64,000 nt of DNA from positions 164,238,001 to 164,302,000 of the forward strand of contig OX597814.1 of the NCBI GenBank assembly GCA_951406725.2. The letters are read 5' to 3'. The notes under the pieces are model-generated. The model saw only the letters and a program-made list of their open reading frames with translations, ran no database searches and was not told where the DNA came from. Below are positions 1,427 through 23,572 of the stretch, one piece after another (position 1 is the stretch's first letter; every line of letters begins with the position of its first letter). The stretch comes from Octopus vulgaris (Eukaryota). Made by a program: the position numbers and the translations under genes.

Positions 1427-1893
1427 GAGTGCCAAAACTTTCCCAGGTGAAGAGAGCACCCCACAATATAGGTTAGTTGTTAACAACTTCAGGATCAGGG
1501 CTATATGGAATCACCGCTGAGATGCTTGAAATATCTGGTGGAGTAGAATATAGCCTAGTCACCCATATAGTTAATGAGGAAGTCATACCCAACAATTGAT
1601 GTAGCAGCATTATAGTCAATTGCTAAAAAGGCAAAGGTGATGCCTTAGACAGAGATAATTACAGATGTATCAAACTATTTGGATCAGGTGATGAAAGTTA
1701 CAGAGAAGGTCATAACCCAACTAGTTAGGAAGAAAGTTAGTGTAGATGGGATGCAGTTCAGATTTGTGCCAGACAGGAGCACAACTGATGCTATACTCCA
1801 GGTTAGGCAACTGCAGGAGAAATAGCTCTATATTTAAGAGATGAAGAATTATTTACATTTGACGGATATTTGTCCTCATCTTTGTTTGTTGTT

Positions 1894-1936
1894 AACACGT
1901 TTCGGCTGATATACCCTCCAGCCTTCTTCAGGTGTC
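1894..1936 (-). ncRNA. Mirror hammerhead-like motif with a 3-nt deletion near the cleavage site
   Basis: Minus strand reads GACAC-CUGAAGA-A-GGCUG(loop)CAGCC-GAAAC-GUGUU. Confidence 0.55.
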
Positions 1937-2292
1937 TTAGGGAAATTTCGAATTTGGGATCTTATTCCTAAGGTATTTTTTGATATTATTATTATTATTA
2001 TTCAGGTCACTGCCTGGAATCAAACATGGAATCTTGGGGTTAATAACCCGTGTGCTTAACCACTACACCATATGCCCACGAGCTAGAAGAAGGTAGGGAA
2101 GGGCATATGGCGTAGTGGTTAAGAGCACAGGCTTCTAACCCCAAGGTTCCGAGTTTGATTCCAGGCAGTGACCTGAATAATAATAATGATGATGATGATG
2201 GTGGTGATGATGATGATGATGATGATGATGATAATAATAATAATATCGAAAAATACCTTAGGAACGAGAATCCAGGTTTGAAATTTCCCCAA

Positions 2293-2338
2293 GACACCTG
2301 ATGAAGGCTGGAAGGTATATCAGCTGAAACATTGTGTT
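2293..2338 (+). ncRNA. Minimal type I hammerhead-ribozyme-like motif (Penelope-type)
   Basis: GACAC-CUGAUGA-A-GGCUG(loop)CAGCU-GAAA-CA-UU-GUGUU: stem I, core, stem II and a 1-bp stem III. Confidence 0.65.
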
Positions 2339-2805
2339 AACAACAAACAAGATGAGGACAAATATCCATCAAATGTAAATAATGCAGAAGAAATATGTAG
2401 CCAAAAATAAACCCTTGTACCTGGCTTCTGTCGACATGAAAAAAGCCTTTGACAGAGACACTGCTCCCTTATCTGGTGGTGAATGTGGAAGCTAGGGATA
2501 GATGAGTGGTTGGTGAGAGTTGTACAAGCCATGTACAGGGATACTGTCAGTAAGTTAGCAATGAATTTAGTGATGAATTTATAGTATAAGTAGAGGTTCA
2601 TTAAGGATCAGGATCAGTCCTCATCCCCTCTTGTTCATCATAGTTCTCCAGGCAATAACAGAGGAATTTAAGATGAGCTGCCCTTGGGAGGTCCATTATG
2701 CTGATGACCTTGATCTTATCACTACTAGAGCTTGAGAAGAAATTTCAGACAAAAGGAAGCAAGGTCTAGAATCAAAGAGCCTTAGAGTTTATCTAGCAAA
2801 AACCA

Positions 2806-23451: not shown

Positions 23452-23471
23452 GATCAACTAATAGATAATAC

Positions 23472-23572
23472 AGTTCTATGTTTGAGAGATGAAGAATTAT
23501 GTATTATTTACATTTGACGGATATTAACAACAAACAAAATGAGGACAAATATCAGTCAAATGTAAATAATGT
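23472..23572. mobile_element. Internally collapsed copy of the 1825-2382 palindromic element
   Basis: Same left end (gttctatgtttgagagatgaagaatt...tttacatttgacggatatt) fused to the same right end (aacaacaaacaaaatgaggacaaatatc.gtcaaatgtaaataat). Confidence 0.8.

Follow-up and report, generated by a model that had tools for sequence, protein, structure and literature searches.

Within the window analysed here, a 64,000-nt stretch of an Octopus vulgaris contig to which all positions refer, a decayed LINE reading frame is interrupted by an insert spanning 1825-2382 and bounded by a 13-bp target site duplication (TSD). We take the host LINE, from its motifs, to be of the RTE type; the two short flanking fragments compared with Pfam gave no match to a reverse transcriptase (RT) domain. 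Excision of the insert in silico yields one continuous RT-like reading frame, in keeping with the single insertion recognized in an initial annotation of this DNA. The long inverted repeat described there was likewise recovered: arms at 1848-2077 and 2101-2383 are inverted relative to one another and 84-97% complementary depending on the segment, and 23 nt separate two tRNA-like heads. Each arm, read outward, comprises such a head, an (AAT/GAT)n microsatellite, and a hammerhead core with its stems I and II, all located as claimed (Table 1). The unit is asymmetric, a 23-nt outer tail being confined to the left arm.

Table 1. Positions of features of the insertion, its host frame and a second copy in the window
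Feature	Position	Strand	Attributes
Host decayed LINE RT frame	1649..1824, resumes after 2395	+	presumed RTE-like from motifs
Left TSD	1812..1824	+	12/13 identical to 2383-2395; edge uncertain by 1-2 nt
Penelope 'tail'	1825..1847	-	left arm only
Left arm body (3' part of pLTR)	1848..1983	-	82-89% to ORF-linked pLTRs
Left minimal type I hammerhead	1894..1936	-	CUGAAGA core; 3 nt including cleavage triplet missing; predicted inactive
Left (AAT)n microsatellite	1984..2000	-	
Left tRNA-like head	2001..2077	-	B box degraded
Junction	2078..2100		~6 nt similar to the middle of a short palindrome with which the pLTR starts, plus 17 nt filler
Right tRNA-like head	2101..2177	+	A box 2108-2118; B box 2151-2162 with one CpG-type change
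Expanded (AAT/GAT)n microsatellite	2176..2245	+	
Decayed Penelope ORF start, overlapping hammerhead	2264..2383	+	arm without tail; N-terminal match to homolog P0003
Right minimal type I hammerhead	2293..2338	+	palindromic loop of stem III mutated
Right TSD	2383..2395	+	pairs with 1812-1824
Second window copy	23471..23572		two very short 3' ends, head to head; one-sided tail; without head or hammerhead

The inserted unit and its hammerhead ribozymes

The folding energy calculated for the insert RNA is -351.5 kcal/mol, compared with a mean of -132 for shuffled sequences (z -38). Read-through by a host gene had been expected to give a hairpin of ~250 bp; a long hairpin is indeed predicted for such RNA from the window copy, but it is smaller (~230 bp) and would bury both ribozymes. 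For the 17-nt filler in the junction between the heads, no source was found at up to 3 mismatches when the whole window was searched.

In the right hammerhead, stem I (2293-2297 with 2334-2338), core (2298-2304) and stem II (2306-2310 with 2321-2325) can be laid out in full, with cleavage predicted after 2333; its stem III loop has changed from ACGU to ACAU, with loss of the palindrome. Neither window arm has the full set of minimal hammerhead features, and both ribozymes are predicted to be inactive. The two divergent, ribozyme-trimmed RNAs formerly envisaged for this copy are unlikely, since both hammerheads are damaged. An inverted pair places the two motifs on opposite strands, so that a tandem dimer in cis is impossible. 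Rfam models detected no hammerhead or tRNA in the unit, the only matches being to miRNAs, driven by the hairpin and far under cut-off, and ARAGORN detected no tRNA in the window.

The majority sequence of the family to which this unit belongs has a CUGANGA/GAAA core, stems I and II, an NUH triplet and a palindromic stem III loop, and thus matches the design of the Penelope-type minimal hammerhead named in the initial annotation. Among 38 arms not used as search anchors, core and triplet are kept in 20, and the ribozyme is fully intact, loop included, in 12. With regard to the proposed check on conservation, core and stems are present in the family majority; in the 24 of 38 arms that could be parsed for covariation, 18 of the 240 pair cells are broken and 2 have changes on both sides. 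Since the copies decay from few masters, no covariation would be expected in the stems. CpG loss within the ribozyme is comparable to that elsewhere in the arms. When the hammerhead of another locus (L030) was cofolded, the stem II region could also pair intermolecularly in the predicted dimer, besides the stem III palindrome; dimer cleavage has reportedly been the subject of work by Lunse et al.

Both B boxes in the window diverge from those of intact copies, and the two arms carry different bases at a T/A marker in the core; under the explanation preferred below, this copy is decaying neutrally after insertion. The second, ~100-nt copy in the window adjoins a long (TA)n tract and has a possible 11-bp duplication (10/11) offset slightly from its ends.

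Copy number and arrangement across the genome

A 35-nt hammerhead pattern had 4,107 exact matches in the 2.8-Gb genome (reversed control, 0) and a 24-nt pattern from the arm body had 6,801; since arms differ by ~5% from the majority, true copy numbers exceed these exact-match counts. Arrangement was scored from 90 of the first 100 hammerhead matches listed, all on contig C1 and not selected for palindromes; second arms were among the 10 omitted, and removal of one duplicate left 89 insertions. Head-to-head arrangement was found in 52 of the 89 (46 with both 3' ends, 6 partial), tail-to-tail in one, and a tandem second body in two; the family is high-copy and often head to head. The remaining 37 insertions score as single within 700 nt. 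This figure is a maximum, since two far longer inverted pairs account for four of them and some others have a short inverted tip. Complex units with three or four arms each, both tandem and inverted, occur at four loci (L051, L057, L122, L134), and one long inverted pair of the Penelope-like element (PLE) is present as several near-identical local duplicates at 7.9-9.05 Mb of C1 (L149, L153, L154), interrupted in L149 by ~3 kb of a different LINE.

Three regularities hold across copies. The tail lies on one arm in 42 of 46 scorable head-to-head copies, on neither in 4 and on both in 0 (p 2e-9). TSDs of at least 10 nt flank 27 of 38 scorable units, compared with 3% of shuffled pairs. Of 40 pairs, 36 are informative for the core T/A marker, and in 35 of these both arms have the same base (p 4e-6); the arms of an insertion therefore come from one source element, although this sharing fits fold-back on one template as well as it fits two templates. 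Divergence between the arms of one insertion (8.9%) is close to that between insertions (9.5%), as arms decay independently once inserted.

These data bear on two simple accounts of the palindrome. That two independent copies landed side by side by chance might seem to be favoured by the differing marker bases of the window arms and by the copies that score as single, but one TSD encloses both arms, tail-to-tail pairs are scarce beside head-to-head ones, and the one-tail rule and marker sharing apply across copies; we consider the probability of this account negligible. Scarcely more credible is a palindromic master of fixed structure that is mobilized in its entirety, whether as the fold-back dimer originally proposed or as a MITE-like DNA element. 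A DNA query with the whole unit did return top matches that resemble it, of ~500 nt and with two heads, but this set was selected by the query itself, whereas among the 46 unselected inverted copies heads are present on both arms in 21, on one in 18 and on neither in 7. Individual copies vary in arm length and in their junctions, and they have asymmetric ends. At two loci (L003, L202; 150 heads examined) the inversion junction contains a filler of telomere-like TAACCC repeats.

The ORF-bearing element and its tRNA-like head

Nine of the 37 'single' copies extend upstream of the head into a common ORF part encoding the C-terminus of an endonuclease. A protein search with this C-terminus gave 3,546 candidates, 150 of which were scored, and the tRNA-like head directly follows the ORF in 19 of 20 ORF-hit loci. 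The order in the element is an ORF for RT and a GIY-YIG endonuclease (EN), a stop, ~35 nt, the head, (AAT)n, the hammerhead and the tail. The suggested search for an autonomous PLE sharing the end of the unit led to ORF-bearing copies such as L176, which is organized as pLTR-ORF-pLTR: the tail tip passes straight into a Penelope N-terminus with a DKG motif, and the ORF begins within the pLTR, overlapping the hammerhead. All copies examined are broken, and none of them retains the full ORF intact. The element RT domain matches Pfam RVT_1 (E 2e-10) and is 55% identical to that of an independent, intact 847-aa homolog (P0003), to whose N-terminus the peptide encoded at 2282-2383 of the window also aligns (41% over 22 aa; pairwise E 0.001). 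The GIY-YIG domain of the homolog has a weak Pfam score (E 0.23), and GIY-YIG/CCHH-like residues were read directly in the element translations. The latter contain the DKG motif and lack a CX2-5CxxC linker between RT and EN, a lack that suggests Penelope/Poseidon by the criteria given in excerpts of PMC8557442; together, motifs and homolog matches point to this clade. The family is also present in the contig sets of organisms B, D, E and F, where contigs bridge the ORF end to the head.

A tRNA-derived origin of the head, asserted from the start, is supported by its best alignment among 32 host tRNA-like loci, to host tRNA-Arg (score 64, compared with a maximum of 52 in 200 shuffles). The Rfam tRNA model gave no match on the head, and relaxed ARAGORN settings recovered 5 of 30. 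Of 30 head-anchored copies, 24 begin at -10 to +1 relative to the head and 6 continue upstream; PLE body lies within 1.5 kb downstream in 26. Exact 24-mer counts, for which the two head patterns tolerated CpG decay and the other three did not, were 623 at about -124, 726 at -35, 2733 at +1, 4485 at +29 and 6801 at +112. Copy number is thus flat upstream, rises 3.8-fold at the head start, then 1.6-fold inside the head and 1.5-fold beyond; the rise within the head means that 5' ends do not all lie at its start.

Short head-started copies outnumber ORF-linked copies by ~4 to 1, as might be expected of a separate non-autonomous SINE with a tRNA head and a Penelope 3' end, propagated from its own masters and moved in trans by Penelope enzymes, and a pLTR that has inserted with its internal promoter intact could in each case be a source, so that short copies may act in a SINE-like manner. 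This resembles the non-autonomous tRNA/PLE hybrid initially inferred, but the head is already part of the ORF-bearing element. Furthermore, when 38 ORF-linked heads were compared with 112 short copies (a non-random sample pooled from several searches), the majority base was the same at 250 of 250 positions (lowest uncorrected p 0.036), two polymorphisms were common to both sets (16/10 vs 59/36 and 24/4 vs 72/27), and divergence was similar (5.8% vs 5.4%). As no majority-base difference or diagnostic base shows at these positions, no separate non-autonomous lineage is apparent in the short copies; judging from these sequence comparisons, we regard a distinct tRNA-derived SINE with trans-mobilized masters as improbable.

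The reading we prefer, with a probability of roughly 0.8, is that the unit represents one insertion of two 5'-truncated pLTRs joined head to head, with the tail on one arm, and that the head is native to the pLTR of the ORF-bearing element, where it likely acts as an internal promoter. The promoter step, taken by itself, is less settled: by our reading of the sequences, the chances that the head is a working Pol III promoter are roughly even. Opposed to this step alone is an account, to which we give somewhat less than even odds, in which the element is the same but is transcribed by Pol II, like other Penelope elements, the head is an inert captured fragment of a SINE, and copies stop at its start through fold-back or template switching of RT at a palindrome. 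A short palindrome coincides with the copy-number step at the head start and could itself cause it; in 59 of 112 short copies an inverted head start lies within 45 nt, in many copies mirror sequence replaces the upstream bases of the element itself, and PMC3846280, in excerpt, proposes self-priming at pLTR palindromes. Other tRNA SINEs, likewise abundant and present in the window, have heads 64-68% similar to this one, and capture of a SINE fragment into the pLTR is probably its simplest origin.

Against inertness, the majority sequence has intact A and B boxes with correct spacing, and some copies begin at -7 to +1 without an inverted partner. A transcription start ~14 nt before the A box would be consistent with Pol III; a search of sequencing runs for the stretch listed none registered as RNA. 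Two near-full-length copies begin at the head (+1/+3). Weighing against the preferred reading, only 3 of 30 loci with an ORF N-terminus reach back to the head, two of them starting there and one passing beyond. A slighter argument is that the 2,672-nt majority sequence has no T4 run along the element, where ~3 would be expected (p ~0.05); G4 is likewise absent, and synonymous shuffling gave p 0.15 for the longest frame (315 codons) and 0.10-0.48 for four single frames.

Proposed mechanism and relation to known elements

Under the preferred reading of two truncated pLTRs in one insertion, the GIY-YIG/RT protein of the element would nick both target strands ~10-13 nt apart, and each nicked 3' end would prime a cDNA, one at the tail tip and the other 25-35 nt further in, from RNA templates that come from one source element. 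The cDNAs would end at the RNA 5' end, in most cases where the tRNA-like head begins, and be joined there, often via the short self-complementary sequence; made and joined at every insertion, they would form the palindrome anew each time. Excerpts of PMC11167929 describe a Poseidon protein that nicks and extends both strands, two RT start sites that bracket the tail, and a predicted dimer, an enzymology that would leave one tailed and one untailed arm, head to head within a TSD. An extended form of this proposal, which we hold tentatively and consider rather unlikely as a whole, is that an autonomous PLE with a captured tRNA-derived Pol III promoter in its pLTR could have each inserted end transcribed as a short RNA that includes both sites of RT initiation as well as the ribozyme, in effect a SINE housed within its parent, and perhaps even the whole T4-free 2.7-kb template. 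Pairs of cDNAs, linked at the self-complementary start of the RNA, would then seed the genome with thousands of long hairpins.

Comparisons with published systems draw on excerpts of the papers cited. The initial annotation knew of no described family with the layout of the unit, but an inverted copy with one tail is a known product of Penelope insertion: PMC8557442 and PMC3846280 report PLEs with an inverted 5'-truncated copy and a one-sided tail of 30-40 bp, an arrangement typical of PLEs according to PMC8557442, and PMC3846280 reports palindromes at inverted PLE junctions without any tRNA. EN+ Penelope/Poseidon PLEs (Adineta Pen2a, Anolis PAc and D. virilis Penelope; PMC8557442, PMC3846280, PMC11167929) share with the octopus element (i) an RT with C-terminal GIY-YIG, a DKG motif and no CxxC linker, (ii) a pLTR in which both a hammerhead and the first codons of the ORF lie, with an inverted 5'-truncated copy at the 5' end, and (iii) a one-sided tail, a TSD of ~10-13 bp and a junction palindrome. 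Unlike these, the octopus pLTR opens with an A/B-box segment of tRNA origin, and the pLTR alone makes up the majority of copies. The hammerhead does not differ in design from the minimal type I ones described in metazoan PLEs (PMC4209133), with a short stem I, a stem II of 5-6 bp preceded by an unpaired base, a 1-bp stem III with a palindromic loop, and a predicted dimer. Palindrome, tail, TSD and hammerhead are therefore known Penelope features; the unusual part is the tRNA-Arg-like A/B-box segment within the pLTR of an ORF-bearing element. No description of a tRNA-headed Penelope pLTR was found in the literature, judged mostly by titles and the starts of abstracts. Excerpts of PMC13282606, in which the repeats of O. 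vulgaris are annotated, and of PMC8967140, a survey of repeats across cephalopods, do not describe family anatomy.

Partial parallels exist elsewhere. In the SINE-like repeats Sm-alpha and Sj-alpha of Schistosoma (PMC6765202) a Pol III-type promoter is likewise followed by a hammerhead, but these are non-coding tandem repeats with canonical hammerheads, whereas the octopus head resides in an ORF-bearing element whose copies are mostly inverted. Animal non-LTR retrozymes (bioRxiv 10.64898/2026.07.22.740005) are also non-coding copies, derived from pLTRs, bearing hammerheads and tied to PLEs; they are defined by tandem arrays, and identity with them was rejected for the octopus family, in which tandem bodies are as rare as 2 in 89 and a tRNA head is present. 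The TRIMp3 elements Cassandra, Helenus and Ajax (PMC10886601) similarly place a Pol III promoter derived from a small RNA inside the terminal repeat, a promoter proposed to stem from SINE insertion. They are non-autonomous LTR elements, whose autonomous partners, that paper argues, have to rely on Pol II and would not have the repeat in common with them; in octopus the segment is part of the ORF-bearing Penelope element itself. In the material consulted, a Pol III-type promoter segment in a terminal repeat was found described for non-autonomous elements only (PMC10886601).

If the octopus head works as a promoter, it would blur the division between SINE and partner and offer one route by which a SINE could arise from a Penelope element by budding. 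A SINE named Twain is reportedly described in the octopus genome paper of 2015. Annotation pipelines would probably treat the present family as two, one a tRNA SINE and the other a Penelope family. The family also provides thousands of short natural insertions, with a strict one-tail rule and arms from the same source, for testing the mechanism of Penelope integration.

The most abundant GIY-YIG family in the genome (intact 781-aa ORF; L064) was considered as a partner for the unit and rejected, as its pLTR and hammerhead differ and the arm is unmatched. It constitutes a very young, abundant PLE (L064:1-2900 and relatives), with the 781-aa ORF intact at many loci and a CxxC linker, and is Neptune-like by the excerpted criteria of PMC8557442. 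By eye, its pLTR has an apparent minimal hammerhead, whose core is the U3-A8 variant, and a region resembling a promoter, in which CCAAT/CRE-like boxes recur.
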